From positions 14,559 to 78,558 of the IMG/VR virus record IMGVR_UViG_3300027759_000073: a stretch of DNA of 64,000 nt. One strand, written 5' to 3'. The stretch is from a virus. Below the pieces are notes generated by a model, which saw only the letters and a program-made list of their open reading frames with translations, was not told the origin of the DNA and did not search any database. Numbering within the stretch: position 1 is the first letter of the stretch; every line of letters begins with the position of its first letter. The translations under genes were made by a program, and so were the position numbers. Shown piece by piece: positions 3,001 to 64,000 of this stretch.

Positions 3001-3327
3001 ATCTTTATAAACTTTTACCTGCTGTGCGCTAATTCCTACCAGACCTCTAATTTGAGCCATAGAGACTTCAAATTGCCTTGACATTTGAATTGCCTGTTTT
3101 CCAGCATTAACAAGTTCGCCAATTACCGCGTACTTAACTAGTGATGCTGTTTGACGCATTGCGTCACCCATCATTCTGATTGGGACAGTGCTGGCTGCTA
3201 CCGACCTAGCCATTCCCGTTGCACCAGCACCAACTGATGAAACAGCACTTCTTGCCGCGGCAGCACCAGTGGTACTAATGGCAATGCGAACATTAATTGG
3301 GGGGAGGCCGCCACCAGCGTTAGACAT
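1..3327 (-). CDS. Tail tape measure protein (TP901-like core), 3' end beyond window
   Basis: Absent from the ORF track because there is no stop in the window. ATG at 3327 reads MSNAGGGLPPINVRIAISTTGAAAARSAVSSVG...FEVSMAQIRGLVG...PVELADALYFITSAG...AKANDILVATVREGKAEADQFAPALGKVLPIAAAFG. Ala/Gly-rich; follows major tail and chaperone genes. Confidence 0.93.
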   Translation of the reverse strand, partial: MSNAGGGLPPINVRIAISTTGAAAARSAVSSVGAGATGMARSVAASTVPIRMMGDAMRQTASLVKYAVIGELVNAGKQAIQMSRQFEVSMAQIRGLVGISAQQVKVYKDEILALGAASSKGPVELADALYFITSAGIKGQRALEVLRESAESAAAGLGETKVVADALTSILNAYGNGTYSAAKANDILVATVREGKAEADQFAPALGKVLPIAAAFGASFEDVSAGVAALTRGGASAGTSAIYLRQVLSQLLKPSKAAAETMHAAGTSAEELRDKIQKDGLLNALSYLNTKLGGTDTQVASEGLTKVFGNVRALTAVFSLLGPNLESNRQIFENLNNATGDADLAFQAYTKTADYKFKKAAAESQAALIRLGDAIMPTVTGLMAMGGAIARVAETLLRFATASGFFNKLAKGALMAIAAFTIFTRASLFLFTRVSSLVRLFGHAQIVTRGLTMGVRGHNAAMQQAGMAATMNANAYKILGMSTTQQTALETELAVATAGGTLITDEETMAILRNHVTKARGAAITQMMIGKTTGQTFANEAEALSWIEKQFAVESFGKSLMATLPMIVGIAALAYTLATSFGLIGSGFGGGMEAPRQSLEDINSLLETTATYAATGINIAVTLDSKDAGKTAEELSKETIDAVDKALYGAKDAIKNIQSGTTDQKVNLAAAILGTMDFADEDAKAKFAEKLTGVFNIGIGESANILKKQGEDYGKDATGLFAAGLAIAGAQRQQKKFQKDLLPDFGTAGTAAKDAGTDSGLEFATEYIKQLTDAGKDKEVANFSQKIGKNISAQFNRTSDVMGFASSIGMLAEPFKQLGAAAQNSTLGVIATKAIFEQLNSAAGDTGVKFDIVEGGFAKILTQASNTDALAAMFGPLNLGAQENAQLVHDVQQEMLRLKDASPTEQMQGFSKVLLENEVALGANEAALYAVQNAGYDVMTEFENGLNPAIQDQVDAFDAATAAIKNYEKGQEAVAGLSKNFVEAQIDANNATVDLRDSLKESGGTVGFSGKQGKAYEDLIKFTEESMNVANIIMASGDENAPQKAAEYMTKQYTQAIDALTKNGKVTKEEAMKQLADIGFKPNDIARTWTGNQTDPLATLGLPTQEAMP

Positions 3328-12936: not shown

Positions 12937-14306
12937 TTGTTGTTCTCCAAGTAGTAGTTCAGGTCTTCAGGTGTTCCGATTCCCCACATCTTGGGAACTT
13001 CCTTAATCCTAATCTTTTTATCATCCTGAATCGCTTCATTGAATACAGGGCAAACATAGAACTCATTATTTGTTCTAATGTCTTTTTCAATCATCTGGTT
13101 TGCATATTTGACATAGTCAGAACCGTGCTTCCAGTAATAGATTCCAACGGTGGCATTATCTGAGATTGGGTTCTTCTCTGCCACTTCTGACACGAAGCCA
13201 TCATCTCCAAGTTTTGCATAGGACCATTTTGGATGGGTTGCCTTGAATGTCAGGATTCCGCCGTCAATCTCGTCAGCACCAAACGCATAGAGGCATTCAT
13301 TGCTATCCCATTCAACGACTTGGTCGGAGTTTGCCATTAGCAATGGCGCGTCAGTATCGATGAGGTGCGAAGCCAGCAGGGTTGTGCAGGCGGCCCCTTC
13401 TGTCATTCCATCAACCAAGACAATGTCGCATCCTGGCTTTATGAGGTTGAGAACCTGCTTTAGGTTGTATTTCTCGTAGTGGTCTTTTTGAACCAAGAAA
13501 ATAAAGTGCGCGTCAACATTGAGGTTGTCAACAACTACCTGAATCATTGGCTTGCCATTTACCTCGATAAGCGGCTTTGGGAATGTGTAACCAGCCTGAG
13601 CAAAGCGTGAGCCAGCGCCTGCCATTGGTATCAAAACATTCATCTTTTCGTTCCTCCAAGCGACTGGCTTTTTGCCACGGGTTTCAATTTCATCAACGAA
13701 CTTCATCAAACTATTTTTATTAAGGTCGTCGGCATTCTTGATTGCAAAAAGATTGGCGCCAGAACTAAGTGCGCCTTCCCTTCCAATATGTGAATCCTCA
13801 ACAATAATGGTGTTTGCTGGACTTGAATCTAAAGAGACTATGCACTGCCAGTACATCTCTGGGTGCGGCTTGTGGTGCTTTACATCCTCGTTGCTCATGA
13901 TGTAACTGACATATTTGAGCACACCAATTGCATCAAGCGCCGTGATTACAGTATCCCTAATCGCGTTACTTGCCACAGCAATCTTCCATCCGCGCTCCTT
14001 AAGGGTCTGCATGATGTCAATAGCGACATAGTTCTTTGGAAACTCGGACAAGATTTTTAGCGTTGCTTCTTGCTTGTCTTCCCAAACTTGCTGGTGATTC
14101 GATTCTGGAAGTCCCTTGTTTTGACTCAACATCTTTAACTTTGTAGTTGTGCCAAGTCCGTCGTACATTGACAGATGCTCATCGCGGGAAATCACATACT
14201 TTGGGTCAATCCTGCTGAGGGCGATATTTAGGGAGTCATAATGCACATCCCTAGATTCAATTAGAACACCATCAAGGTCAAAGATTACAAGGAAGTTACT
14301 TTTCAT
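12933..14306 (-). CDS. Fusion: HAD phosphatase plus NTP transferase (nucleotidyltransferase)
   Basis: FDLDGVL, VASN, KPHPE and IVEDS (HAD); IPMAGAGSRF...PKPLI (NTP transferase). Likely start MKSNF. Confidence 0.88.
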   Translation of the reverse strand: MKSNFLVIFDLDGVLIESRDVHYDSLNIALSRIDPKYVISRDEHLSMYDGLGTTTKLKMLSQNKGLPESNHQQVWEDKQEATLKILSEFPKNYVAIDIMQTLKERGWKIAVASNAIRDTVITALDAIGVLKYVSYIMSNEDVKHHKPHPEMYWQCIVSLDSSPANTIIVEDSHIGREGALSSGANLFAIKNADDLNKNSLMKFVDEIETRGKKPVAWRNEKMNVLIPMAGAGSRFAQAGYTFPKPLIEVNGKPMIQVVVDNLNVDAHFIFLVQKDHYEKYNLKQVLNLIKPGCDIVLVDGMTEGAACTTLLASHLIDTDAPLLMANSDQVVEWDSNECLYAFGADEIDGGILTFKATHPKWSYAKLGDDGFVSEVAEKNPISDNATVGIYYWKHGSDYVKYANQMIEKDIRTNNEFYVCPVFNEAIQDDKKIRIKEVPKMWGIGTPEDLNYYLENNK

Positions 14307-14961
14307 GTGGGTTTGGTCCCGCATGTCTGTGCCACTTATTGTGACGAACAATACTCTTACCATTGCACTTCATCAGATATTTATCCCTCACGCGCATTGA
14401 CCACTCTACATCTTCTTCTTCGTTCCATCCGCGAGACTCGTCCAGCGGCTCTTCCAGCATCACATGCTTTTTTAGCATGAAGAACCCGCCAGAGATATAC
14501 ATATATTGCGTTTGAGTCCAGTCGTTATAGTCAAGCGACCAGGCCCTACCGTGTCCAGGCTTGTCCCATAATGACCAATCCATTGGATTGCGTGCTCCAT
14601 TGATTAGGTACTGGGGGCATGAGCAGATTTCCCAATCTGTCCCGAACTTCTTAAACTCTTCATACCAAGCACTATCAAAAATGTGGTAATCATGCATTAA
14701 CACAATGTTTTCGTACTTCGCGTTCTGAACAAGAATGTTCTTTTTGCGGGTAATCCATCGCGGCTTTATTGACTCGTCAAAGTCAATCTTTACGATGTCA
14801 TCGCCTTCAATCCCAGACGAATCTCCGCCGCCTACAAAAAGCATTTCGTACTCTGGCACTCCAAGACTTCGGATGTTTTCAACAATTTCAGAAAGTCTAT
14901 TTTTATCTTCGTAAACAGTGATTATCCCAAAGGTCCACGGAATGTCATGCATTCTCCGCAC
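14296..14961 (-). CDS. Glycosyltransferase (GT-A/GT2-like)
   Basis: TFGIIT, ITRKKN, VLMHDY, YISGGFF, LDE...EEDVEWS motifs. Confidence 0.75.
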   Translation of the reverse strand: MRRMHDIPWTFGIITVYEDKNRLSEIVENIRSLGVPEYEMLFVGGGDSSGIEGDDIVKIDFDESIKPRWITRKKNILVQNAKYENIVLMHDYHIFDSAWYEEFKKFGTDWEICSCPQYLINGARNPMDWSLWDKPGHGRAWSLDYNDWTQTQYMYISGGFFMLKKHVMLEEPLDESRGWNEEEDVEWSMRVRDKYLMKCNGKSIVRHNKWHRHAGPNPHEK

Positions 14962-16069
14962 CTTCTAGTATTGAGCGATAAACATGATTCCATTCAGGTC
15001 CACGCTTTTCCATAGTGAATAGGTTCTTTACATTTGCAAGATTCTCTTCAACTTCGTCTTTGCGCATTGATGGGTCCATAAGTTCGTTTAAGTGGTAATT
15101 CCACTCACTCTTGTTTCGCGCCACTCTTCCAACTCCATAACTTGCCATAAATTCATACTCGGGGGACCAGGATGAAATAAACGGAATGCCAGCGGCGACA
15201 TACTCAAGTCCCTTGATAAAAGACTTTGCATGATTGAATTGAACATCGTTCAATGGAACAATTCCAATATCAATTGGTGCAAAGAGTTTTGGGTAATCTA
15301 GAATTGGGACCAGTGGGAGCGTCGTAGTGGAATCCGCACTAATCCCAAGTTGGTCGGCGGCGTGTGCTGCATTTGTCTGCAAGTGCCCAGAATGATGAAA
15401 CTTTAGACCGTTGCTATTTATAAATGACCCCACAGAATCTGCCACCGATTCAAGGTCACTTGAGCGCCAAGGGGTAGCCCCAACCCAGCCAATTGTTGGC
15501 TTATCAACAAAGTTGACTTTGTTTCTCTTCCACCTATCAAGGTCAATGCCGTTTCGCACCATGAAGACATTGTCATTAAATTTTGAATAGTAATCGCCGA
15601 GGAATGGGGTTGACACCACAATGGCGTCGGCAAGAGCGATTATTTTGTTATAGATATCTCTGTTATTCTCTGGGCTTTTCTCTGGGTCTGTAACATCGTA
15701 AGCACGGTTTGTCTTTTCTAGACCGTCATGCCAGTCGTCAATATCCACGACAATAATCTGCCCCAGTGCCTTTGCTTTGTGCATCTCTTCCAGAACTCTC
15801 TGATGCATAATGAGTTTAAAAACAATTATATCCCAACCGTGGATTGCCTTTTCGTCCTCAACCATTAATCCGAATCCATGCGCTTCGTTAAATCCAGGGA
15901 AACCCATACCAGTACCCCACTGGTGCTTCTTTAGTTCCCTTGATGGAAGAAGGCAGCGATACCATCCGCAACCATTGGGTTGAAGCGGCTTTGTTCCCCA
16001 AGACCAGTCAAATGTCAAAAAAGAGATATTTGGGTTCTTTTCCATTTTTCTTCCTGTATTGTCTTCCAA
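14945..16069 (-). CDS. Glycosyltransferase (GT-B/GT4-like)
   Basis: YRCLLP, DIDD, VRNGID, IGWVG, DIGIVPL..FN.AKS.IK.LEY.AAGIP motifs. Confidence 0.85.
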   Translation of the reverse strand: MEDNTGRKMEKNPNISFLTFDWSWGTKPLQPNGCGWYRCLLPSRELKKHQWGTGMGFPGFNEAHGFGLMVEDEKAIHGWDIIVFKLIMHQRVLEEMHKAKALGQIIVVDIDDWHDGLEKTNRAYDVTDPEKSPENNRDIYNKIIALADAIVVSTPFLGDYYSKFNDNVFMVRNGIDLDRWKRNKVNFVDKPTIGWVGATPWRSSDLESVADSVGSFINSNGLKFHHSGHLQTNAAHAADQLGISADSTTTLPLVPILDYPKLFAPIDIGIVPLNDVQFNHAKSFIKGLEYVAAGIPFISSWSPEYEFMASYGVGRVARNKSEWNYHLNELMDPSMRKDEVEENLANVKNLFTMEKRGPEWNHVYRSILEGAENA

Positions 16070-38128: not shown

Positions 38129-39427
38129 TCAGGCAGGTGCGCTGTTGAGTGAAACTTCAACGAACGACTCTGGACGCTTAACAGCAAGTGCAATACGCTC
38201 TTCAGCAAGTACTGCAACTGCATTGCGAACAAAGAAGTCGCTGTGTTGCTCGGAAACGCGGATGTTGCCCTCCATGCGGTCGTACAGCGTTGCGCCAACA
38301 CCGAATGAACCAAGGAGAACCTTGCCTTCGGTAATTGCTGGCGTGCTGACGATTGGCAAACGCCACAAGCGAGCATCTGCACCCATCGATACGGACATAA
38401 GCATCAAATACTGTGCTTGTGAGTCCTTCGTGAGTTCGATGTCTTCGAGGTCGTTCGGGTGAACAATCATACCTGTTGGCTCGTAGTAAGCAAGCAACGA
38501 CTTGGTGATACCACGACGAATTGCATCGAGGCGGGTATCTCCAGCGGCACCACTTGACCAAGTTGAGGTCTGAATTCCAGAGGTCGAACGGATACCAGTG
38601 AGGTTTTGTCCAACACCGTTTCCGTTAAGAATCTGGTCATCTTCTACCAAGCGGAGTCCGTACAACAGTTCGTTGTCGATAATTCCACGAAGGGTTGGCT
38701 CATCGTCCAACACATTGCGGTGAGCAACTTCGTAGTGAGCAATCGTGCGAACTGGAGCCTGAACACCAACGACGGTCATTGACGACTGTGGCTTTACACC
38801 AAAGGCGTTGTTTGCGTCGTTGCGCTCTGCAACAGTTGATGCGTTGTTGGTGAAACCAGAAACACGGAAGTATTCAACCATGTTGCTGCTCGTCTGCTGT
38901 ACATCGAAGAGTTCGCGTACGCGCATGGTGCGCTTCTGACGCTCTACGATACCCTCACGCTGTGGCGTACCGAAGTCTGTAGGAGTGCCTGATGGCAATC
39001 CTGTGTAGACATCTTTGCGACCCCAGTGTGACGAGAATGCACCATTCACTTGGAACGGAGCATGCATCGTGTAACCAGACTTACCACCAGCAATTGCCTT
39101 GAACTCGTCTGATTCAATGAACTGCTCGCCAAGCGATTTTGCGCTTTGTGGAACAATCAAACCAGACTTGGTCTGTGCTACTGGTGCGGTCATGCCTTCA
39201 GCCCATGAGCGAATTTCGCCCATGCCTTCCAAGGCCTCAATTTCAGCACGGATTTCGCGTGCCTTTGCGAGGTTGCCTCGGAATGCTTCAACATGCTTTG
39301 CTTGTACTTGAATCTCAGGTCCGCCTTCTTCGCGGGTAGCACCTGCATGATTAACGATGTCATCGTTATCTGCAAGAACTGCACGGAGGGCTGACTTGAG
39401 TTCCTTTAAACGGCTATCTGTAGCCAT
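38129..39427 (-). CDS. Major capsid protein, HK97 fold
   Basis: KSLGEQFIESDEFK, EDDQILNGNG....LTGI, HPND...I...KD, RLWRLPIV, F.RN....LAEER.ALAV.RP.SFV; strong AAGGAG RBS. Confidence 0.95.
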   Translation of the reverse strand: MATDSRLKELKSALRAVLADNDDIVNHAGATREEGGPEIQVQAKHVEAFRGNLAKAREIRAEIEALEGMGEIRSWAEGMTAPVAQTKSGLIVPQSAKSLGEQFIESDEFKAIAGGKSGYTMHAPFQVNGAFSSHWGRKDVYTGLPSGTPTDFGTPQREGIVERQKRTMRVRELFDVQQTSSNMVEYFRVSGFTNNASTVAERNDANNAFGVKPQSSMTVVGVQAPVRTIAHYEVAHRNVLDDEPTLRGIIDNELLYGLRLVEDDQILNGNGVGQNLTGIRSTSGIQTSTWSSGAAGDTRLDAIRRGITKSLLAYYEPTGMIVHPNDLEDIELTKDSQAQYLMLMSVSMGADARLWRLPIVSTPAITEGKVLLGSFGVGATLYDRMEGNIRVSEQHSDFFVRNAVAVLAEERIALAVKRPESFVEVSLNSAPA

Positions 39428-44809: not shown

Positions 44810-46981
44810 CTATGAAAACAAAAGTGTGCAACTGCAGTTCATCACAAACTCAGTTGGTGCTTCTGGGTCTCCAGGGTACATTGCAGACTTGCCATTAATC
44901 TCAAACTTCTCGTCGATGCCGACTGTCTGACTGGCAAGTTCAGCGTGCTCATTGCGTGCTGAGTCTTGACTTGGGCGGTGAACCCATGTCTTTTTTGTAT
45001 ATCCAAGTTCTTTTGCTGCCCATAGAAGACCAGCATTGAACGCCCCGCCAACTTCTGTTTTGGAGATTGTTTTAACTCGCGAACTAAATGCCGAAGCGAA
45101 CCATGCTTTTAGAGCAGTGATGAACTCTTGGTGCGACTTTGAGCGATGCTCGCTAATAATTTTTTCAATATTGCGCTTGCTCGTCTCGTTAATAGATGAA
45201 ATAGCCTTAATTCGTGGGCTAACGATTTCGTCCATCGTTACATTTCCTGGGTTTAAAGAATCAACTTTTGTTGAGGCTACTTCGATTGCCCCATCAAGGA
45301 ACACTGATGCAACCCATGTTTTTGCATCGGAGATGAGTTGGTCATTCCACACGGCAACATCAAAAATGTCTTCTGCTTTGATTCCTTCTCCAGAATCCCA
45401 TTTTTCCTTAACCTTTTTAGAGGCTGCTTTTTCAATTGTTACTCGCTCTTGGCGCTTCAACATTGAACCAATCTGAAGCGCGACACTTTGCTCAAGACGG
45501 GTAATCTGGCGCGTGCGGCGAACCCCAATGTCTTCGGAAGACTTTGATTCCTCAATGTCATGGGCTAAAGGGGTTAGTGGTGGTGTAAAAATTGACCTTG
45601 GTGTTGGAGGGTTGGTCGGCTCTATCGAATCGTTTGGTCGCGAGTTCGGACTTGAGTTTGGCAACGCTGGGTCTGGTGCATCCGCAGGACGGCGACCTGG
45701 CCTTTGGTTCGGGTTCAACGGAGCGCCATCTTCTGGTTGTTGCTGACCGCCATTGTTTGTCTGCATGACAACTGGTGAAAGGTTTGTTGGGATTAGCAAC
45801 TCATCAATTCCAACACCTTCGCGCCCAGTGAGTTCGCGGTATTCATCAATTGAAATTGCACCCTGCTTCAATTCTTCAAGATGGAATCGAGCACGCTCTC
45901 TATCGTCACGGCTCAAAATTGCAACCGAAGAAAGGTCATAAGCAAAGTATGTAGTTGGGTCTTCGTCTAATTTGTCAAAAGACCGCTCAAGAAGCGTCAG
46001 GTGAGGAACCATTGTCTCTCGCCAGAATACTTCTAGTTCAACATCAGCATTAGCAAATGTCCTATTTGATGCATTTCCAATTACTGATTCGGGTACACCA
46101 AAGGCGAGAAGAATCTCTTCCTTGTTCATTTGACGAGCCTCGATATATTGAGCATCTCGCTGATTGGTTGATGTATCAATAAACTTTGCATCTTCAGCAG
46201 ACATTACGGTTAGGCGACCTGCGCCACCGATATTTGAGCCAGTACTTCCCTTGAAGCGGCGTTGAATTTCTTCTGCCTGTTCTTCTTCCATGTCTCCGTT
46301 AATTACAAGAATTCCGCCTGGTCGACCATCATTAACCATAAAGTTACGGTTGAAAACTTTTGCGTAATAGTCGTACTCAATTGCTAGTCCAGCAGACTCA
46401 AGTGGAGTCTGTCCTTTGAATGGGTCAATTGGGTGTGGAACTCTTGTCCAAATTACATCTTTGGCATCAATGATTCTTTTTGGGGTATTTGGATACTCAA
46501 CAGAGAATCCAGATACGAATCTGTCTGGGTCTGGAATTGGGAAGGTGTATTGCGGAGGAAGCAAAACTAGTGCGGCAACTTCTCCCATGCGATTACGAAT
46601 GATTTCCACAAACGCACCACGCTGAGAAAGCAACAACTGCGATGACAGCATAAAGCGGAATGAAAAAGCATCTTGACCAGGGTTTGCATTGCGATTCATA
46701 ATCTGCAAAATTGGGTCGTCGTATGTTAGTTCGCCGATTCTCCAGTCGCCCTTTCTCATGGCAATCGGGAGAGATGCAGCGTTTGCTGAAATTGCGTAAA
46801 CTGCTTTGTAAACCCAAGTAACTCTGTCAAGTGCTTGTGTTACTGAGCGCTCCAAGTCCCAGCCATCTTTGTATGGCTTTAGGGGGCGGCCAGGACCGCT
46901 TGATGGTGCGTAAAACTGTTTCTTATCTGGGGCTACAAAACCTTGTTGGTCGTGTGTGTTAAATGAGCGAAGGAATGCCAT
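44810..46981 (-). CDS. Portal protein fused to MuF-like head morphogenesis domain
   Basis: HK97-type portal (GQTPL, F.N.G.PGGIL, I..AFGVP...IG...TFAN); C-terminus TE....N...K.W......R..H......V...F......YPGDP......NC.C. Confidence 0.9.
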   Translation of the reverse strand: MAFLRSFNTHDQQGFVAPDKKQFYAPSSGPGRPLKPYKDGWDLERSVTQALDRVTWVYKAVYAISANAASLPIAMRKGDWRIGELTYDDPILQIMNRNANPGQDAFSFRFMLSSQLLLSQRGAFVEIIRNRMGEVAALVLLPPQYTFPIPDPDRFVSGFSVEYPNTPKRIIDAKDVIWTRVPHPIDPFKGQTPLESAGLAIEYDYYAKVFNRNFMVNDGRPGGILVINGDMEEEQAEEIQRRFKGSTGSNIGGAGRLTVMSAEDAKFIDTSTNQRDAQYIEARQMNKEEILLAFGVPESVIGNASNRTFANADVELEVFWRETMVPHLTLLERSFDKLDEDPTTYFAYDLSSVAILSRDDRERARFHLEELKQGAISIDEYRELTGREGVGIDELLIPTNLSPVVMQTNNGGQQQPEDGAPLNPNQRPGRRPADAPDPALPNSSPNSRPNDSIEPTNPPTPRSIFTPPLTPLAHDIEESKSSEDIGVRRTRQITRLEQSVALQIGSMLKRQERVTIEKAASKKVKEKWDSGEGIKAEDIFDVAVWNDQLISDAKTWVASVFLDGAIEVASTKVDSLNPGNVTMDEIVSPRIKAISSINETSKRNIEKIISEHRSKSHQEFITALKAWFASAFSSRVKTISKTEVGGAFNAGLLWAAKELGYTKKTWVHRPSQDSARNEHAELASQTVGIDEKFEINGKSAMYPGDPEAPTEFVMNCSCTLLFS

Positions 46982-51838: not shown

Positions 51839-52303
51839 CTACTGTCGGCCCTCCTTCGGTGGTAAAGACTTAGTAAGACCAAGTCTCTCCGCTTCGGCGG
51901 GGTTGTCATGTTTCCAGCGGTGGTGCATACGGCACAACACTTGGCAGTTACTCGGGTCTAAATGGTCGCCTCCGCGACCTCTCGGGATAACTTCGTCCAC
52001 ATCTAGCGGACCTGAACATGACAGATATGTTACCAAAAATTTACCTTGACACAACCCCATATCGCGTTCAAGGACTATACGACGGACTTCTGCGCGTTGT
52101 GGGGCTTGGCTTTTAGTCTTTTCAGAAATTTGAGAAATCTTTTTTTTATTTTGTTTTACTGGTGTTCTGCGCAATAATGGTGCGGAATTGTCTCCGCATC
52201 CTTTGATTCTATTCAAACCATCAGTCGATTCTTTTAATGTTCCAAACTTTGGACAATCACTAAGGGAGCATTTATCTTTTCTTCCTTCGCAATCGCCCTT
52301 CAT
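51839..52303 (-). CDS. HNH endonuclease
   Basis: VLERD...CQ...C...LDVDE..PR.RGG.....N...LCR.HH. Confidence 0.8.
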   Translation of the reverse strand: MKGDCEGRKDKCSLSDCPKFGTLKESTDGLNRIKGCGDNSAPLLRRTPVKQNKKKISQISEKTKSQAPQRAEVRRIVLERDMGLCQGKFLVTYLSCSGPLDVDEVIPRGRGGDHLDPSNCQVLCRMHHRWKHDNPAEAERLGLTKSLPPKEGRQ

Positions 52304-53628
52304 TAAAGGATAATCCTCACAGATGTTTTCTTCTTTCCAACTAGTGATTGCATTGCACCAGCAACAGCGTCCACTTGGTCATCGTGTGCACCGTATGGAA
52401 AAACTTCGCATTCGTCAATGAATGGTGAGTTCCAGGATGCTCTTGCAAGCATGACATTTCCTGCTTCTGCCGCTGAGGAAAAAACAAGTGCGCGGTCTTT
52501 CTTGGAGACATTTGACTTCTCTCCGCGGAATATAAATCCTTGGAGAACAGTGCGCGCGTAGTGGTCAATGACATTCACACCAGAAGAACCTGGTTCTTGT
52601 TCAATAATGATTGGAGTAGACACGCCGTCAATCTGTGCTGTTTGCGCAATCATCTTTTCAACTTCATAAGGACTTCCGCGCATTCGACGAATATCCATCA
52701 CAAAGTAACGACCATCTTTCATTCCGACTAATGCACCGACCGTGTAGTCGGGGTCGTTTGAGCGACTCTTTGGTGTTGCAGCCAAGTCCCAGTAGCGAAC
52801 CGTTTTCATTCCTTCAGGGAAGTTTCCAGTAACCGAGAATGACTCACGCTTGAACATTCCACCCTCTTCGCGGATTTCCCAGTTTCCATCGAGAAGTCGC
52901 GCGCGCTCAATTGCATCAAGTTCATTAAGACCTTTGATGTATGCCTCGGAGTCAAGAGAAGGGTTATCCAAAATCTTTGCAGGCATAAACTTTCGCTCTG
53001 GCTTTTTATCCAGAATGAATCTCTCGTACACCCAGTTGTTTCCTGGACCTCCAGGGTTAGTTGCGGCGCGGGTTCTTAGAGGAATGTCTGCAGATGTCAA
53101 ACCACAGTGAGGGCAAGCAGGTAGAGATTCGTCCTGCATTGGTTTACGAACACGAGAGAAGCCCACATAGCGATAAACACGGTCGGTCTTCCACTGCGTT
53201 AACTCGTCTACACCAACGAAGTGGTAAGCAAACGACTGGAACTTGTAGCGGTCTTCATCGCGTTCGCAATGGTCGAACGAAAGAGTTGCACCAGAGGGGA
53301 AAGTCCATCGCTTATTTGTGGAAACATAATTAGCACCAGTACCCGCAAGCCACGCATTGCAACGGTCAATAAAGCCGTCAGGACCAGACAATTGCGGGTA
53401 TGTCTGACGCAAAAGTAGCGCGGAGTAACCAGGAACACAGATGTACTGGAGTGCAGACATGAGAAGCGTGTCGGACTTTCCTCCGCCAGCAGCACCGCCA
53501 TAAAGGGCTTCGCGTGTTGTTGTCCAAGTCAAATAAGCCTGTTGCTTTGGGTGCATTGTGTGGGGAAACTTAAACCCGCACGGTTGTTTCCAGTCAGTCA
53601 GCGATGCAAGTTGCTCGCGAGTTGTCAT
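52303..53628 (-). CDS. terL: Terminase large subunit
   Basis: GGAAGGGKS Walker A, VGVDE Walker B, ATNPGG, YWDLA and HDDQVDA nuclease motifs. Confidence 0.95.
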   Translation of the reverse strand: MTTREQLASLTDWKQPCGFKFPHTMHPKQQAYLTWTTTREALYGGAAGGGKSDTLLMSALQYICVPGYSALLLRQTYPQLSGPDGFIDRCNAWLAGTGANYVSTNKRWTFPSGATLSFDHCERDEDRYKFQSFAYHFVGVDELTQWKTDRVYRYVGFSRVRKPMQDESLPACPHCGLTSADIPLRTRAATNPGGPGNNWVYERFILDKKPERKFMPAKILDNPSLDSEAYIKGLNELDAIERARLLDGNWEIREEGGMFKRESFSVTGNFPEGMKTVRYWDLAATPKSRSNDPDYTVGALVGMKDGRYFVMDIRRMRGSPYEVEKMIAQTAQIDGVSTPIIIEQEPGSSGVNVIDHYARTVLQGFIFRGEKSNVSKKDRALVFSSAAEAGNVMLARASWNSPFIDECEVFPYGAHDDQVDAVAGAMQSLVGKKKTSVRIIL

Positions 53629-57364: not shown

Positions 57365-57433
57365 ATGGACCTACTAGTTCTACTATCAGCGCTGACTTTG
57401 ATGGCAGCAGTGTGGTATCGGGACCATACATAG
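57365..57433 (+). CDS. 22-aa hydrophobic peptide
   Basis: MDLLVLLSALTLMAAVWYRDHT* with AAGGAG RBS. Confidence 0.45.
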   Translation: MDLLVLLSALTLMAAVWYRDHT

Positions 57434-57558
57434 GACAGGTCACCTATACAGGTGATTACAGGTGCAAAATGTGGGGCGGGCTCCCCGCGAGGCAACCCTA
57501 AACCTTTAGTTGAGGGTTAGGGGGTGGGGGGTATCCCGTCACTGTGAGTGGTCGAGGC

Positions 57559-57578
57559 TGTGGATAACCTGTGGATAA
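57559..57578. promoter_or_regulatory. Tandem DnaA boxes
   Basis: TGTGGATAA (reverse complement TTATCCACA) at 57559 and 57570. Confidence 0.7.
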
Positions 57579-57589
57579 CAGCCCCAGAC

Positions 57590-57603
57590 CGAACACTTGT
57601 TCG
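57590..57603. promoter_or_regulatory. LexA/SOS box (Gram-positive type)
   Basis: CGAAC-ACTT-GTTCG is a perfect CGAAC-N4-GTTCG. Confidence 0.65.
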
Positions 57604-57746
57604 CATTGGCACTAGGCGTGCTGTAATGCGTTCTAGCGCGCGTGGCGCGGTGTTGTGTGTGTCTAAGCCTTATCGAGACTAGCGCGCGTCTAGGCGCGTT
57701 GTGGCGCGTCTCACGGCTTGCGGGCTATGGCGCGCAATAACGGCGG

Positions 57747-57840
57747 GCAAGGGTTCGCAAGGGTTCGCAAGGGTTCGCGGTGCTGGCGCGTCTCACGGGC
57801 AACGGGCAACGGCGCGAGACTGGCAACGGGCAACGGCGCG
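57747..57840 (+). repeat. Short direct repeats
   Basis: (GCAAGGGTTC)x3 followed by two copies of GGCAACGGGCAACGGCGCG. Confidence 0.8.
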
Positions 57841-57863
57841 CAAGTGTTATCCCATAAACGCGA

Positions 57864-57902
57864 ACGGCGCGCCAGTCTCATCTTGCGAGACTGGCGCGCC
57901 GT
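57864..57902 (-). terminator. Hairpin after 57924..58664
   Basis: ACGGCGCGCCAGTCTC-N7-GAGACTGGCGCGCCGT, 16-bp stem. Confidence 0.65.
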
Positions 57903-57923
57903 GTTGCGCGTGACGATTACCGA

Positions 57924-59047: not shown

Positions 59048-59321
59048 TGGGTTTTTTCCTTTGCTATGTTCGGCGGTTTTGCCGATACCCCATCATAGGC
59101 ACAATGTTGGGGAATGTGTCAAGTCAATGCGCATATTTTCTAATTTTTTTCTATATTTTCCCGATATCCCGTCTAAGCCTTACGCCGTAAGGGTTTGCGC
59201 CATATCTGCCCTAATTGACGGCGGGCTATATATAGACACGCCAACACGGCGGGCGACACGGGCAGACACGACACGGGCACACGGCAGACACGGCAACGCC
59301 GACACGGTCACGCCGTAGCCT

Positions 59322-59349
59322 TGTGGATAACTCTAAGCCTTGTGGATAA
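59322..59349. promoter_or_regulatory. Second pair of DnaA boxes
   Basis: TGTGGATAA at 59322 and 59341, within duplicated AGCCTTGTGGATAACTC. Confidence 0.7.
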
Positions 59350-59749
59350 CTCAACCACTCTGAGTGTGATATATCAGCGGGGTAATATATCGGTGATATA
59401 TCAGCGGGGTTTGGGGGGTCGGGCGACCCGCACCCGAAGGGTGCCCCCGCCGCGAGAAAATGGTGTTCCAGACTGAATGATTTTATTTTGTTACGCTCCG
59501 TTTCCTCGGGCTGGGTCGTCCCTGCCCGCGACCCTTGAGCGTCCTCGCTCCCCTTGCGCCCTTGTCTCGACCCTCTGCGCCCTCGTCCCAACGCCAATAC
59601 CCCGCGCCGCTTTTTTAGCGGAGCCTCTGCCCGCCGCCCCTACCCTCCCCCTTCGGGAGTGTGGCTCGACCCTGGTGCCCGTGTTCGCCCTGGCGCGCGC
59701 CCTGAGCCTCTCTACGAAGCCCTAGGCGCGCCCTGGTGCGTCCTCGCGC

Positions 59750-59854
59750 CTACTTGCGCCCGCGAGCCCACAACACAAGCGCCACGATTAGGACGCTTGC
59801 TGTAGACACTGCAACGGCGGTACTTGCATTGTAGATGTCAAGTGTTACCTGCAT
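59750..59854 (-). CDS. Cassette A: 34-aa single-TM microprotein
   Basis: MQVTLDIYNASTAVAVSTASVLIVALVLWARGRK*; GAAGGGAG RBS; promoter TTGCAA-N17-TATAAT (59909..59881). Confidence 0.65.
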   Translation of the reverse strand: MQVTLDIYNASTAVAVSTASVLIVALVLWARGRK

Positions 59855-59928
59855 TGTGCTCCCTTCATTGGTATAAGTATATTATAGCACGGGTTGGCGG
59901 TAATTGCAACCACCAACCCGAACTATTT

Positions 59929-60222: not shown

Positions 60223-60347
60223 TATGCGTTCCCTTCATTAGGTTGGTTGTTACTAATACTATTATATCACAATATCGCGAGCACGACAACCCCAAATAAT
60301 TATATCTTTGGGTTGCTAAGTATGCGAGAGTGTGCTATACTGTATAT

Positions 60348-60497
60348 ATGAACAACACACACAACTCACTCGCCAAGTGCGAAGGTGCGGACTGCACCAA
60401 CCTAACCGACATCGTCCTTTGCGATGACTGCACTGAGGAATACCTGTACGACTACGAACTCGCGCGGGACGACAGGGCTGAGGCGCGGTTGCGCTGA
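60348..60497 (+). CDS. Cassette C: leaderless 49-aa Cys4 microprotein
   Basis: MNNTHNSLAKCEGADCTNLTDIVLCDDCTEEYLYDYELARDDRAEARLR*; TTGCTA-N17-TATACT (60313..60341), 6 nt before ATG. Confidence 0.7.
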   Translation: MNNTHNSLAKCEGADCTNLTDIVLCDDCTEEYLYDYELARDDRAEARLR

Positions 60498-60992
60498 CGC
60501 CAACGGCGGGCGGGGCGTGAGCCTCGCCAACCCTCGCGACCCTCCTCCCGTGATATATCAACGGCATATCACCCTCGCGCCACCCTCGCGACCCTTCCCC
60601 CTCGGATAAGCCCTCAGTTAGACAATTATTTGCGCGCACAACCTGAAGCCCTGGGAGCGCCCTGGTGCCAACCCTTGGCGTGGTTCCAGTTCCCGCCGCC
60701 CGCCTCCCTCGCTCCCCTCGCGATGGCAAGCCCTGGGATAAGCCCTCAGTCTCGCAAACCCGCGCGCACGCGCCCTGGAGCCCTGGGTGAGCCCTTGCGC
60801 CAACCCTCGATATGAACGCCCGCGACCCTCTGTTTTTTTCTGAACGCCAACCCCGCGCGCCCTCCTGCGGATACGCCAACGCCACGCCCTGGCCCTCCTC
60901 TTTGCGGAGCCCTGGCGTGCCCTTGCGCCACCCTCGGGTGAGCCCTGGAGTGCGAAGCCCGCGCGCCTCTCCTCGGCTCTCTCCCTTGGTTG

Positions 60993-61052
60993 CTAGAACC
61001 TGCCTGCCCGTATTCCCGCGAGCAAGTGTGCGATGGTCATCATCAGTCTCAT
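60993..61052 (-). CDS. Cassette D: 19-aa peptide
   Basis: MRLMMTIAHLLAGIRAGRF*; GGAAGGA RBS; TTGCAT-N17-TATAAT (61110..61082). Confidence 0.5.
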   Translation of the reverse strand: MRLMMTIAHLLAGIRAGRF

Positions 61053-61134
61053 TTGGTTTCCTTCCATTAGGTTATGTATCTATTATAGCACGCCCCGCGA
61101 ACCAATGCAACCCGCGGGGCGACTATTTTCTAAA

Positions 61135-61377
61135 TTATTTTGCGAGCGACGCCCTCAACAATGCGTTGCGGAGTTTGCCCATTCCAACCTTGTCGGAGTG
61201 TGAGCCCCAACCTTCGGAGACTTGGGTCAGTTCGCCCTTGGTTAGTTCCGCCATCAAGGTGGAGTAGTGATAGATATGACGGGTGTCGCCGTCAATGTCT
61301 ACGGCTCGCCACGATGAAGCCTTGAATGAGCGCCCCGCCTTCACGGGCTTGGTTGCTAGGTCTGCTAATTTTGCCAT
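61135..61377 (-). CDS. Cassette E: 80-aa hypothetical protein
   Basis: MAKLADLATKPVKAGRSF...; GGAAGG RBS; TTGCAG-N17-TATACT (61456..61428). Confidence 0.72.
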   Translation of the reverse strand: MAKLADLATKPVKAGRSFKASSWRAVDIDGDTRHIYHYSTLMAELTKGELTQVSEGWGSHSDKVGMGKLRNALLRASLAK

Positions 61378-61729
61378 TGAGTTGCCTTCCGTTCGGGGCT
61401 TGCTGGTTGCTTGCCCTTGTATATACAAGTATAGCATTTTATAGCATACTCTGCAAGTCAAACGGGCAGATTTTTCTAAATTGTTTTGCCCTCAACGAGA
61501 CGCGCCCTGGCGCCCCTCCTGCGGCGCAAGCCCTCGAACAAGCCCTCAGTTGGACAATCCCTCGCGCTCACGCCCTGGAGCCCGTGGTGAGCCCTGGGTA
61601 TCCCGCGGGGGTTGGTCGCAAAACTGCAGGGCAAGCCCTCCCCCTATATTGTCCCCTGTGCGACCCTCCTGTGGGTATGCAGAAGCCCGCCCCGCGGGGG
61701 GTGCGGGTCGGGCTCTGCCTGTGGTCTTG

Positions 61730-61948
61730 CTACGCTTCCAGCGAGCGTGCAACCGTTCCTGTGAAGGTTGGGCTAACCCAGCGCAACACAATCGCCATTT
61801 CGGCACTGCGGTCACGAACAACCGCAACCTTTGCGCACTTCTCTACCCAAGCAACCGCTTCGGTGAGTGTGTCGCACGACATTACTTTGACGAGACCGCC
61901 ATCGCCCTCGTTGTCGTACTGCCAGTGAACTAGATACTGATTTTCCAT
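61730..61948 (-). CDS. Cassette F: 72-aa hypothetical protein
   Basis: AAGGGAG RBS; TTGCAT-N17-TATACT (62007..61979); GC hairpin downstream at about 61679-61718. Confidence 0.72.
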   Translation of the reverse strand: MENQYLVHWQYDNEGDGGLVKVMSCDTLTEAVAWVEKCAKVAVVRDRSAEMAIVLRWVSPTFTGTVARSLEA

Positions 61949-62036
61949 TTTGTTCTCCCTTGTTTCGTTGGTAATACAAGTATACCAATTCGTGCGACAA
62001 TATGCAAGTCAAACGGGTATATTTTCTAAATTATTT

Positions 62037-62240
62037 TTAGGACATAAAGTCCAGCGCCCTCTGCGCCCTCTGCTTCGCCCAAACCGTGCTGGCTTCCAGC
62101 GAGCCCGCGGCGTATGCGTGCCCGTAGTCCGCCACAAGTCCCTCGGGGTTCAGCCCGTCTAGGTACTCCACGATTTCCGTGAGTGCGTGTTCTAGGTCGG
62201 TGACCCTCGCCCTCAGTTGGTGTTCGGTGTATGTCTGCAT
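62037..62240 (-). CDS. Cassette G: 67-aa hypothetical protein
   Basis: GGAGGG RBS; TATAAT at 62275..62270 with no clear -35. Confidence 0.68.
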   Translation of the reverse strand: MQTYTEHQLRARVTDLEHALTEIVEYLDGLNPEGLVADYGHAYAAGSLEASTVWAKQRAQRALDFMS

Positions 62241-62320
62241 TTTATTTCCCTCCGTTGTGTTGTGAATAAATTATACCCAATGGGTGTCACACGGTTTCCC
62301 GCGCGCCCTCCCCCTTCGGG

Positions 62321-62452
62321 CTAGTAAAGTCCTCGGGCGATTTCTCGCTGTTGGTCTGCGATTTCGTCACAGAAACAATCGCAAGACCAAACCCCGCAGT
62401 CCTCGCAGGTTTGGATATCGTCCTCGGTGGTTGTGTTCGTTGTGTTTGTCAT
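62321..62452 (-). CDS. Cassette H: leaderless 43-aa Cys-rich microprotein
   Basis: MTNTTNTTTEDDIQTCEDCGVWSCDCFCDEIADQQREIARGLY*; TTGCAT-N17-TATACT (62487..62459), 6 nt before ATG. Confidence 0.7.
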   Translation of the reverse strand: MTNTTNTTTEDDIQTCEDCGVWSCDCFCDEIADQQREIARGLY

Positions 62453-62552
62453 AATAATAGTATAGCACACTATGCTACACAATGCAACCCCATTTCCAAA
62501 ATAAATAAAACTTTTTCCGACCCGTCGCCCTTGCGCCCTCACGCCCGCGGGG

Positions 62553-62711
62553 CTAGTTCAGCCACTCTCCGCAGTGTGCGCAGATTTTCACGCTACCGCC
62601 GAAGGGCAGTTTTTCGTAGTCGGTGGTTGAGCCACAAACAACGAGTGCGCCCTCGTCACTCACACAATAGGCTGGCAGGTGGATTTCGTGGTTGTTCAGT
62701 GTAATCGTCAT
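62553..62711 (-). CDS. Cassette I: leaderless 52-aa Cys4 microprotein
   Basis: MTITLNNHEIHLPAYCVSDEGALVVCGSTTDYEKLPFGGSVKICAHCGEWLN*; TTGTCA-N17-TATACT (62746..62718), 6 nt before ATG. Confidence 0.7.
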   Translation of the reverse strand: MTITLNNHEIHLPAYCVSDEGALVVCGSTTDYEKLPFGGSVKICAHCGEWLN

Positions 62712-62925
62712 ATATACAGTATAGCACACTCTGCCACGCTTGACAACTTATTTCCAAATATTTTTGCTGTCTGCCAGTCGCGCCCTCAGCGTCCCGCGTG
62801 CCCTCGCACCCTCGGATAAACCCTCAGTCTCGCTTTTTTTCCCACTCACGCCCTGGAGCCTTGGGGCACGGCTAATAGCCCGCGGGGTCGCCACTCCCGC
62901 GGGCTTGCGCCTTGCTTACTACCAC

Positions 62926-63057
62926 TTAGTGAGGCACGCCGTTCCAGTATGGGCGTGGCTCTGAAGGCTCGTCATACTCGTCATAACCCTCTGCTTCCAA
63001 CAATTCGTCTTCCCACCCTGGCTTCCACCCGTGGTCCAAGTCACCGTAGTTTGACAT
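62926..63057 (-). CDS. Cassette J: 43-aa acidic/aromatic microprotein
   Basis: MSNYGDLDHGWKPGWEDELLEAEGYDEYDEPSEPRPYWNGVPH*; GAAAGGA RBS; TTGCAT-N17-TATACT (63116..63088); hairpin at 62877-62905. Confidence 0.7.
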   Translation of the reverse strand: MSNYGDLDHGWKPGWEDELLEAEGYDEYDEPSEPRPYWNGVPH

Positions 63058-63345
63058 TTTGTTTCCTTTCGTTTGGCTGATATATACAGTATAGCACAAT
63101 ATCGCACGATATGCAAATTATTTCCAGATATTTTTCTAAGCGCCCTGGGCGTAGCCCAAGCCCTCGGACAAGCCCTCAGTCTCGCAAACTTTCCCTCGTT
63201 CACCCTGGAGCCCTGGAGCGTGCCCTGGGGCAATTCTTGGCTTGGTCGCCCGCGTGCCCAAACCCACCAGCCTCCGCCCGTGGGCAGATACGCCAATGCC
63301 CGCCCAGCGGGGGGGCTGGGCGGGCTGGCTCTGACTGACTGCCGT

Positions 63346-63603
63346 CTAGCGGTAGTACAGCCAGTTCTTGCGGAACGAGACTGCCGTTCCTTCGTAGTCG
63401 GCGTTAGCGTCACGGCTAATGGCATCAACCATTACTGGGGCGATAACAAGCGTGTCGGGCGTTGCCTTCGCCGTGCGTAGCGCACGGTTGCTGGCGAGGG
63501 CATAGGTCAAGCCGTTGTCTTGGCTGACCGCCATCGTGGTTTTGGCTTGGCTTGAGTTTGTCAAGCCTGACCACTGAATATTGCTATTGCGTGCTGGTCG
63601 CAT
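63346..63603 (-). CDS. Cassette K: 85-aa hypothetical protein
   Basis: GAAAGGGA RBS; TTGCGA-N17-TATAGT (63673..63645); hairpin GCCCGCCCAGC...GCTGGGCGGGC from 63298. Confidence 0.7.
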   Translation of the reverse strand: MRPARNSNIQWSGLTNSSQAKTTMAVSQDNGLTYALASNRALRTAKATPDTLVIAPVMVDAISRDANADYEGTAVSFRKNWLYYR

Positions 63604-64000
63604 ATTTCCCTTTCGCATAGGTACTTCGTTTTCCCTATGAATATACTATAGCACACTCTGTCACGGTTCGCAACCTAAAATAGAATTATTTTGGATATTC
63701 TTTTGATATATCACCGCCCGCACCCTCCTCCCTCCCTCGGCAGACCCACTAGCCTCCGCCCTGGCGCGCCTCTTGTAATGCGTCCTGGGGCGAGTTACGG
63801 GCTTGGGTGGGTGCTTGCCCCATATCGCCCTCGCGGAGCCCTGGGAGCCCTTGGGTGCGTCTGACGGGGCGAACAAGTGTTTGGGGGTCGTTTGCCACGA
63901 TATGCGCCCTCGTGCGATATTGTGCGAGTAAAAGTAAAATAAGCCCTCAGTCACGCAAAGTCCCGCGCGCCTCCCTCGGCACGCCCTGGAGCGTCTAGTG

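Follow-up and report, generated by a model that had tools for sequence, protein, structure and literature searches.

Results

Organization of the locus

The window, i.e., the whole 64-kb stretch of DNA analysed here, belongs to a siphophage of roughly 110-135 kb with siphovirus-type tape measure and tail genes, which looks virulent (no integrase was found). Its hosts are probably freshwater actinobacteria, the actinophage context being given by a WhiB gene, hairpins without U tracts and leaderless starts. Isolated phages provided no DNA match and no close relative (the nearest share about 45% TerL identity), and TerL had no relative in bacterial genome contigs, so that no host could be assigned by that route. 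The contigs are classed as linear and have no end repeats, and those of the relatives continue through the zone described below.

This zone, which is about 5.5 kb long and lies in the early region, is bounded by clusters of DnaA boxes. The window contains four perfect DnaA boxes, arranged in two pairs, and no others; in the relative G003 a third cluster (three boxes) occurs about 1.06 kb beyond the point where the window ends. Each cassette gene of the zone is followed by a GC hairpin devoid of a U tract, a putative terminator. The order of the elements is constant, since every long spacer comprises a U-less GC hairpin, a G-run tract and the next sigma-70-type promoter. The tracts, found exclusively in this zone, range from about 40 to 495 nt and have a G+C content of about 67%, as compared to 44% genome-wide. 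The longest one is preceded by an ORF-less promoter of the minus strand, and a plus-strand gene (60348-60497) converges on it. Such ORF-less promoters run directly into tracts in the window as well as in the relatives G002, G003 and L050. The main features are listed in Table 1.

Table 1. Tracts, repeat copies and neighbouring elements of the zone (positions in nt of the window).
Feature	Position	Strand	Remarks
G-run tract	59500..59760	-	14 CCCT on +; C 45%, G 26%
Longest tract, holding copies 1 and 2	60498..60992	-	27 CCCT; 495 nt
Tract with copy 3	61486..61680	-	
Tract with copy 4	62770..62875	-	
Tract with copy 5	63140..63300	-	
Tract with copy 6	63715..64000	-	
Copy 1, variant right arm	60599..60657	- (G-rich sense; + in the initial annotation)	nhmmer E 5e-18
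Copy 2	60731..60789	-	132-bp tandem duplication with copy 1
Copy 3	61531..61589	-	CCCT unit within the "variable" middle
Copy 4	62809..62867	-	
Copy 5	63161..63219	-	
Copy 6, 30-nt variant	63932..63992	-	One extra CCCT unit
DnaA-box pair	59322..59349 (boxes 59322/59341)	+	Bounds the zone on the terminase side
Second DnaA-box pair	57559-57578 (boxes 57559/57570)		
GC hairpin without U tract, after cassette A	63298..63325	-	
Similar GC hairpins	62877-62905, 61684-61714		
Sigma-70-type promoter of cassette B	63088..63117	-	A/T-rich stretch upstream
Paralogous promoters	62718-62746, 62459-62487, 61428-61461, 61082-61110, 63645-63673, 60261-60289, 59881-59909		Promoter scan and repeat family
Cassette B	62868..63079	-	Hairpin and 43-codon gene (62926-63057)

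The repeat block

The initial annotation had drawn attention to a bipartite repeat, and much of its description was borne out. All six copies occur at the positions that it gave, on the plus strand as it was written, and all of them share one orientation, lie between ORFs and are non-palindromic. The gap separating ...CCCTCAGT from C[G/A]CCCTGGAGCC measures exactly 20 nt in copies 1 to 5 and 30 nt in copy 6 (core at 63942), and the right arm of copy 1 is the variant CAACCTGAAGCC. The strict pattern was matched exactly four times, for 0.00 matches expected (100 shuffles), and the spacing is kept in every close relative, as about 25 copies from 11 related contigs each have a 20- or 30-nt gap. 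The middle, which had been described as drifting, does vary; it does not drift freely, however, for two types of middle were found, CTCGCAAA.. and T[A/G]GACAAT...

The view of a bipartite site with a selected geometry was not supported, because the arms are ordinary members of an array of units and the gap corresponds to about three unit lengths. Two copies harbor a CCCT unit inside their middle, and the 30-nt variant results from one additional CCCT unit (CCCT at 63944, 63973 and 63984). What had been seen as two arms around a gap is a block of higher order, 70-100 bp long and the best-kept part of the G-rich one-way spacer tracts. Its 14-nt core, A[T/C]AA[G/A]CCCTCAGT[T/C], occurs six times, always intergenic and co-oriented with the minus-strand cassettes. 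Each genome has just four to six copies of this more specific core/block, which are confined to the zone of about 5.5 kb and overlap no promoter. The block is restricted to one narrow lineage, and the core of copy 6, GACT[G/A]AGGGCTTAT, also occurs in the distant relatives G004 and L030. No fixed distance of the block to promoters or hairpins was found, the left arm lying about 44, 63, 70 or 260 nt from the -35 box, and the right arm about 10 to 95 nt from the hairpin.

A one-way word and its conservation

The arms are instances of a much commoner polar word, which reads CCCT on the plus strand and AGGGC on the gene-carrying strand, and whose neighbouring units are mostly 8-12 nt apart. Between 60 and 64 kb the plus strand has 83 CCCT for 4 AGGG (45 and 38 CCCT, and 2 and 2 AGGG, per 2 kb), and AGGGC in the zone is similarly one-sided (53 vs. 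4 in the window, 71 vs. 3 in G003); the word is unskewed elsewhere in the genome. The Chi sequence of B. subtilis (AGCGG) is not enriched (2 vs. 3). The tracts are not coding DNA, as the 8-12-nt units are not multiples of three and indels between relatives break the frame. A promoter for a phage single-subunit RNA polymerase was also rejected, as PF00940 had no match in five contigs (searched with no positive control) and, on the plus strand, there is nothing for such a promoter to express; the left arm bears a faint likeness to the T3 promoter core.

Among gap-free columns, 13% of those in CCCT are variable as compared to 28% of the other tract columns (p 1e-4), and five control words submitted to the same test showed no such effect, whereas a consensus-based test that included gapped columns gave no significant difference in conservation. 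The least variable part of the word is the CCC triplet, with about half the variation of the rest of the tract. Judging from these alignments, purifying selection acts on the GGG core, whereas units and blocks appear and disappear as wholes. The units also display a weak phasing of 10-10.5 bp (R 0.25, attained in 17 of 1000 gap shuffles), which is partly due to the paralogous blocks, yet was present without them on re-testing.

Turnover of cassettes and words among relatives

Between close relatives, the cassette breakpoints (few events) fall in repeated intergenic modules, as the initial annotation had anticipated for its element. Cassette B is missing in G002, where the junction is inside the repeated promoter-and-block module, within long shared homology and not at a fixed point. 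The 132-bp tandem duplication of copies 1 and 2 exists in the window, G001 and L113, and is single in G003 and G002. The spacers differ between relatives by indels of 70, 148 and 250 nt, and in the tract with copy 6 the segment 63719-63867 is an indel, missing in G003 and G002. Copy 4 has orthologues in G003 and L083 whose middle is of the other type (TAGACA.. instead of CTCGC..), a swap that resembles a gene-conversion patch.

The initial annotation had named as a refutation the absence of the element from relatives with the same cassettes, and L050 goes halfway towards this, as it retains cassettes A, C, F and G (80-86% amino-acid identity) and lacks the element. At the corresponding sites it has a different G-rich word, likewise one-way. 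The lineage words are strictly one-way, namely GCGGCGG (12:0) in L050, GGCGGGC (12:0) in L048 and CGCGGGA (9:0) in L030. Both L050 and G004 have just one or two words per spacer. Arrays are absent from the cassettes that lie past the zone in G003 (beyond 44.6 kb), from the D-E junction of G003 and from L050. One word of L050 (at about position 1770) adjoins an opposite-strand gene with no obvious sense promoter.

Discussion

Orientation-specific punctuation as a tentative reading

From the following lines of evidence, we tentatively propose, as the best reading, that the tracts are an orientation-specific, stoperator-like punctuation that doubles as recombination homology. First, the word is strongly polar and the tracts occupy a fixed position. 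Second, the CCC triplet is constrained and the units are phased. Third, the context is that of an actinophage. Fourth, no site-specific recombinase was found. The unit of the tracts is a one-way sequence of 8-12 nt with AGGGC as its end when read in the sense of the genes. The two arms are units that follow one another and whose flanks are slightly more specific, the 30-nt gap holding one unit more. The words would be recognized on the DNA in one orientation, most likely by a protein that the phage encodes, and the bound sites would punctuate or stop the transcription running through autonomous early cassettes, as mycobacteriophage stoperators do. Because the block and the promoter next to it are direct repeats, they also supply, as the comparison of relatives shows, homology for ordinary homologous recombination, by which cassettes are duplicated, deleted and patched. 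The occurrence of lineage-specific words in the same places is what a co-evolving reader would be expected to produce.

The stoperators of cluster A mycobacteriophages (L5 gp71; TipsytheTRex repressor) are 13-nt asymmetric intergenic sites oriented with transcription (PMC9283540). The likeness extends to asymmetric, non-palindromic sites in short intergenic regions, oriented with transcription, with words that differ by lineage. Stoperators, however, number more than 20 genome-wide, including operators at promoters, whereas the present words are confined to one zone and consist of six specific cores plus about 100 degenerate arrayed words. Furthermore, no gp71-type repressor (HTH and Stoperator domains) was found in this phage, which looks virulent; an L5 gp71-like protein had no match at E <= 1 in five contigs (genomes 52-79% complete), and no HTH or RHH protein was detected by Pfam and PHROGs among 74 early ORFs of G003 and the cassette proteins of the window. 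The proposal is further weakened by the about 100 degenerate words constrained mainly in GGG, which resemble a 13-nt operator less than a property of G-run composition, and by the fact that some cassettes, and L050, manage without arrays. Knowing that nearly all genes point in one direction, co-orientation with transcription and location on a fixed DNA strand are indistinguishable here, and the confinement between DnaA-box clusters suggests a role of the whole DNA segment, not of single transcription units.

The cassettes themselves are reminiscent of the promoter-early stem-loops (PeSLs) of T4-like phages (Arbiol et al. 2010, PMC2839356; Comeau et al. 2014, PMC4122927). In both cases a strong sigma-70-type promoter and a stem-loop are repeated between small non-essential early ORFs, and recombination between modules leads to indels and replacements among close relatives. 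Unlike PeSLs, the present modules have a long one-way G-run tract, with its 70-100-bp block, between stem-loop and promoter, and they are confined to one zone of a siphovirus, probably of actinobacteria, not of a T4-like myovirus. PeSLs are moreover a feature of the hyperplastic regions of such myoviruses and are associated with encapsidated mini-circles.

A possible effect of the G-runs themselves

It is conceivable, if on the whole rather unlikely, that no dedicated protein is involved and that the effect is intrinsic and co-transcriptional, G-runs in the non-template strand and the nascent RNA, opposite a C-rich template, making R-loop- or G-quadruplex-prone spacers that slow read-through from one strong promoter to the next. 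This would fit well with a constraint centred on the GGG triplet, with distant relatives retaining G-runs and not the word, with ORF-less promoters firing into tracts, and with the avoidance of self-structure by the tracts. It would also fit with the distribution of the runs of four GGG on the minus strand of the whole 64-kb window (loops of up to 9-12 nt), as all 15-16 of them are in the zone. Loops of 5-9 nt make weak quadruplexes, however, a helical phasing is unexpected, and both the more specific 14-nt core and the tract-less early cassettes outside the zone are left unexplained. G-run spacers of this type could also prime replication beside the DnaA boxes or stimulate recombination, as does the pilE G4 of Neisseria.

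A possible signal acting on DNA

The initial annotation had also offered a polar signal for DNA entry or translocation. Such a signal would address a machine that travels along incoming or replicating phage DNA, either to brake or hold injection within a first-entering segment, as in T5, or to restrain a host nuclease or translocase in the manner of Chi or KOPS, an option that is unlikely in our opinion. In a related and equally doubtful version, the G-run arrays and the block would mark, in a family of large lake actinophages unrelated to T5, a DnaA-bracketed, first-entering segment, like the "pre-early" DNA of T5, handled as a unit, with words acting on DNA and not as transcription punctuation; they might brake or hold entry, or attenuate a host end-processing nuclease (RecBCD or AdnAB).

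Such a signal would account for the extreme strand polarity and its limitation to the DnaA-bracketed zone, and for the L050 word that lies beside an opposite-strand gene; an enzyme that comes in at the terminase side would meet the G-rich strand as the one with the 3' end. The first-step-transfer DNA of T5 has untranslated repeat regions and an injection-stop region (Davison, bioRxiv 10.1101/866236). Like the present zone, it has a block of small early genes driven by strong promoters of the host type, extensive non-coding regions of direct repeats, same-orientation DnaA boxes in pairs (2-3-bp gap) on both sides of a few kb of small ORFs, and one-way repeats (nine DRD repeats in T5). This likeness comes with no sequence similarity, the TerL proteins are unrelated, and the DnaA clusters are inverted repeats in T5 and direct repeats here. 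A T5-type region is further marked by a long terminal repeat, DNA entry in two steps and the A1 and A2 genes. Moreover, the contigs of the relatives run through the zone. As to Chi, KOPS and SRS, they share with the present word a short G-rich sequence and an extreme strand polarity, but the present word keeps to 5-8 kb of spacer DNA that is non-coding, with no skew in the rest of the genome. A Chi/KOPS-type signal should be constrained over 5-8 nt, whereas the constraint is mostly on GGG. Between relatives that infect the same hosts and whose cassette proteins are 80-86% identical, it should also stay the same, and the present word changes between close relatives.

Unlikely readings: spacer expansion, recombinase sites and small RNA

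A functionless or selfish expansion of the spacers by microsatellite-like slippage and unequal crossing-over of a G-rich unit, with recombination homology as its sole consequence, also seems improbable. It agrees with the very variable tract lengths, the coming and going of units and blocks among close relatives, the one or two words per spacer of L050 and G004, and the limitation of the block to one narrow lineage. It hardly explains why the CCC core varies half as much as the sequence around it when control words show no such contrast, why separate tracts have a 20:1 polarity in common, why one-way words of this kind recur at corresponding sites in diverged relatives, and why tracts of about 67% G+C occur in a 44% genome.

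A dedicated site-specific exchange in an integron-like cassette system, one form that the recombination site suggested by the initial annotation could take, is very improbable, despite the shared orientation of the elements and the mapping of cassette differences to repeated modules. No tyrosine or serine recombinase (PF00589, PF00239) was found in the six contigs searched (G000, G002, G003, G004, G005 and G007, covering up to 79% of the related genomes). The element lacks dyad symmetry, and thus differs from integron attC sites, which have an imperfect dyad and a cognate integrase. In addition, the G002 junction has no fixed point, and the duplication unit is a plain repeat of 132 bp.

A repeated structured small RNA is the least credible of the proposals, for even though the tracts are transcribed or adjoin strong promoters, Rfam had no match in 60-64 kb, the element mostly folds worse than shuffles on both strands (z +0.8 to +2.3; RNAfold, 14 copies), and the 495-nt tract folds no better than them (z 0.2-0.35).

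Significance

Large uncultured freshwater actinophages appear to arrange their ORFan-rich early regions as self-contained cassettes parted by one-way words, and the present word stands out by its shortness, its strong amplification and its restriction to a DnaA-flanked segment. If a protein reads this word, stoperator-type orientation-dependent control would extend from temperate mycobacteriophages to virulent lake phages, and if the word acts on incoming DNA, it would provide a second, independent case of T5-style staged infection. Under either reading, the comparison of relatives directly shows repeats driving cassette turnover. Outside the zone, the relatives carry compact promoter-in-hairpin units.

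Structure and distribution of the block

The block (left arm, gap, right arm) had initially been annotated as a two-part site in six copies with gaps of 20, 20, 20, 20, 20 and 30 nt, and we recovered every one of them; its strict pattern gave 4 exact matches in the window versus 0 in 100 shuffles. At 60-64 kb the plus strand holds 45 and 38 CCCT per 2 kb, versus 2 and 2 AGGG; elsewhere in the window, either word occurs 0-10 times per 2 kb. The core reads AGGGC on the gene-sense (minus) strand, with counts by strand of 53 versus 4 in the window's zone (the ~5.5-kb region of G-run tracts bounded by DnaA-box clusters) and 71 versus 3 in the close relative G003, and adjacent cores are mostly 8-12 nt apart. 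The left arm consists of a pair of these units at a distance of 12 nt, the right arm of one or two further units; copies 3 and 5 have a unit inside the supposedly "variable" middle, and the 30-nt form, with units at 63944, 63973 and 63984, holds one extra unit. Because the arms consist of array units, which also occur in some middles and, as one more, in the 30-nt form, the block is a higher-order repeat inside the unit array, and not the separate bipartite site first described.

Using scans of a viral and of a metagenome collection and a profile search, we found the block confined to one narrow lineage, in which each genome has 4-6 copies: the close relatives G001-G003 and seven metagenome contigs. 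The conserved spacing was borne out in homologs, every one of the ~25 true copies having a 20- or 30-nt gap; the ~50 chance hits from the metagenome collection had gaps evenly spread across the allowed 16-36 nt. Since the block-bearing relatives are 80-97% identical to the window in DNA, gap constancy is weak evidence among orthologs and better evidence among diverged paralogs. The left core, A[T/C]AA[G/A]CCCTCAGT, is more specific than the generic unit. The distant relatives G004 and L030 contain one or two variant copies of it (GACT[G/A]AGGGCTTAT when read in sense), with a gap off by 1 or by 10 nt.

The more distant relatives (TerL 77-84% identical) likewise carry one-way G-rich words upstream of the terminase, in the corresponding place, the words being different: GCGGCGG in L050 (12:0), GGCGGGC in L048 (12:0) and CGCGGGA in L030 (9:0), with AGGGC retained in L046 (20:1). 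L050 has neither block nor arrays; its spacers each contain only one or two copies of an ~18-nt word (TGGCGCGGCGGTTGCTGG), placed immediately upstream of the next promoter. Because L050 retains cassettes (small early genes with their own promoter and hairpin) A, C, F and G at 80-86% amino-acid identity yet has no block, this specific block is dispensable for them, but the class of signal is conserved.

Cassette turnover

The initial annotation also considered a recombination site for cassette exchange. First, cassette B (62868..63079, minus strand) is missing from G002, the lone spacer of which is a hybrid of the cassette C promoter and the copy 5 block, which places the junction within the repeated module, as that proposal would have it. 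Second, copies 1 and 2 form a 132-bp tandem duplication in the window, G001 and the block-bearing contig L113, and are single in G003 and G002. Third, indels of 70, 148 and 250 nt take out promoter, tract, or micro-ORF plus tract. Fourth, the copy 4 ortholog of G003 and of another block-bearing contig, L083, has the other middle type between flanks that otherwise hardly differ, resembling a conversion patch. For the site-specific part of the proposal no enzyme was found: contigs covering up to 79% of related genomes yielded no tyrosine or serine recombinase. Because the events map to repeated modules and no site-specific recombinase was found there, cassette turnover is most economically explained by ordinary homologous recombination between the direct repeats, the process described in the PeSLs (promoter-early stem-loops) of T4-like phages.

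Possible modes of action

The data fit spacer DNA carrying an orientation-specific signal, the word of which co-evolves within lineages; as nearly all genes run one way, "with transcription" and "fixed on one strand" are inseparable in these data. In gene direction, long spacers comprise, in this order, the stop codon, a strong GC hairpin without U tract, the G-run tract, an A/T-rich stretch and the promoter, with variable distances from block to promoter and from block to hairpin. The nearest documented actinophage mechanism is that of stoperators, intergenic and asymmetric 13-nt sites that follow the direction of transcription and where a bound monomeric repressor stops elongation (PMC9283540). 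By analogy, the spacer words would act as orientation-specific, stoperator-like sites on DNA, and we tentatively regard such a stop of elongation as their most likely way of working. Since no gp71-like protein was found and the sites are few and not spread genome-wide, the window element is not a member of the stoperator family.

The GGGx4 runs of the window are all confined to 57.7-63.9 kb, with 15-16 on the minus strand; this clustering follows from the array and is not independent evidence for an intrinsic effect of G-runs (R-loop or quadruplex), a main rival reading that we consider unlikely.

In G003, whose sequence is collinear with that of the window and extends 25 kb past its end, the tracts are restricted to 36-44.5 kb and densest between two DnaA-box clusters, three further DnaA boxes lying ~1 kb beyond the window end. 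A DNA-level signal tied to this DnaA-bracketed segment, by analogy with the T5 first-step-transfer region, is a further main rival but appears rather improbable. Past the zone, the early cassettes of G003 have no tracts and show instead compact promoter-in-hairpin units, a PeSL-like promoter-terminator composite; beyond 44.6 kb (13900-15300 of its piece L008), the -35 (TTGCAA) lies in the loop of a GC hairpin.

Essentially neutral repeat expansion, the third main rival, likewise appears rather improbable. Entire units and blocks are gained or lost between relatives. Multiple alignment of orthologous tracts showed variation in 13% of the gap-free columns under consensus CCCT versus 28% of other tract columns (p 1e-4), a difference that five control words did not show in gap-free columns and that vanishes once gapped columns are counted; within the unit, variability is lowest in the CCC triplet (5-15%). 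A weak phasing of 10-10.5 bp (R 0.25) persists without paralogous blocks and was equalled by 17/1000 gap shuffles.

A structured, repeated small RNA can be set aside, an Rfam search giving no match and the block and longest tract folding no better than shuffles, mostly worse, on either strand.

Genome, host and neighboring elements

The window makes up the right-hand 64 kb of an IMG/VR virus contig of 78.5 kb (completeness 59%, CheckV) and has siphovirus-type structural genes on the minus strand. No DNA-level match to it was found among isolated phages, and the best TerL matches (psiM2 and Gordonia phages) are only ~45% identical. From ~58 kb to the window end, G+C rises from ~44% to 55-57% and the genes are small, nearly all on the minus strand, each with a near-consensus sigma-70-type promoter and an A/T-rich stretch upstream; some have leaderless starts. 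The A/T-rich stretches directly upstream of -35 boxes could be WhiB7-type sites instead of classical UP elements. Beyond the window, the early genes of G003 include a WhiB-like transcription factor (L009:3611-3985; PHROG; Pfam PF02467, 4e-20), accompanied by subtilase, thioredoxin, ferredoxin, DUF932 and proteasome-like peptidase genes. The WhiB gene, U-less GC hairpins, leaderless starts and CGAAC-N4-GTTCG boxes point to an actinobacterial host. Judging by their sample identifiers, the source metagenomes are presumably freshwater.

Coordinates of features in the window and, where named, in pieces of relatives (L008 and L009, G003; L054, G004; L048, G007)
Feature	Position	Strand	Remark
Tape measure	1-3327	-	
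Major head protein	38129-39427	-	
Portal	44810-46981	-	
Large terminase (TerL)	52303-53628	-	
Complex non-coding repeat regions (two)	57430-57920, 59160-59470		paired perfect DnaA boxes, tandem AAGGGTTCGC x3, ACGGGCA and GACACGG runs
Perfect DnaA boxes (four, in two pairs)	57559/57570, 59322/59341		none elsewhere in window
CGAAC-N4-GTTCG boxes	57590-57603, 63870-63883; also L048 and L050 spacers		Gram-positive/actinobacterial SOS-box form
Palindrome GTGATATATCA(C)	59366, 59393, 60550, 63705; also L008, L009, L050		in spacers
TGGAACACCAT(A)TTTT	59455-59475; L008 ~11990; L054 ~18160; L048 ~3825	- (window)	
Leaderless Cys-rich microprotein gene	60348-60497	+	only plus-strand gene
Block copies 1-6	60599, 60731, 61531, 62809, 63161, 63932..63992 (core 63942)		
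Promoter with only a 19-codon frame behind	61082-61110 (frame region 60993-61052)	-	fires into 495-nt tract 60498-60992

A ~200-bp module (hairpin ACCCTCAA..TTGAGGGT, DnaA boxes and a CGAAC-N4-GTTCG box) is directly repeated across the tract zone in G003 (far side, L008 11850-11970) and also in L050 (1-140 versus 5750-5960). Several long family contigs end in or beside the tract zone (L046 start and L054 end, both G004; L047 end, G005; window end; G001 start), for which failed assembly of the repeats or altered coverage at a terminal repeat may be responsible. Next to the DnaA clusters of the window, G003, G004 and G007 stands the conserved word TGGAACACCAT(A)TTTT, with an A/T-rich stretch before it.

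In relatives, the palindrome turns up about once per kb of the early region and could serve for operator-like binding or for loading. The CGAAC-N4-GTTCG boxes are frequent in L048 and L050 and, because they form there the stems of post-gene hairpins (GGGCGAAC....GTTCGCCC), may act as stems of terminators and not as LexA sites. The minus-strand promoter followed by the 19-codon frame and its tract converge toward the microprotein gene, a layout retained in L050 (4425-4680), and the transcript may be an antisense RNA to this gene.
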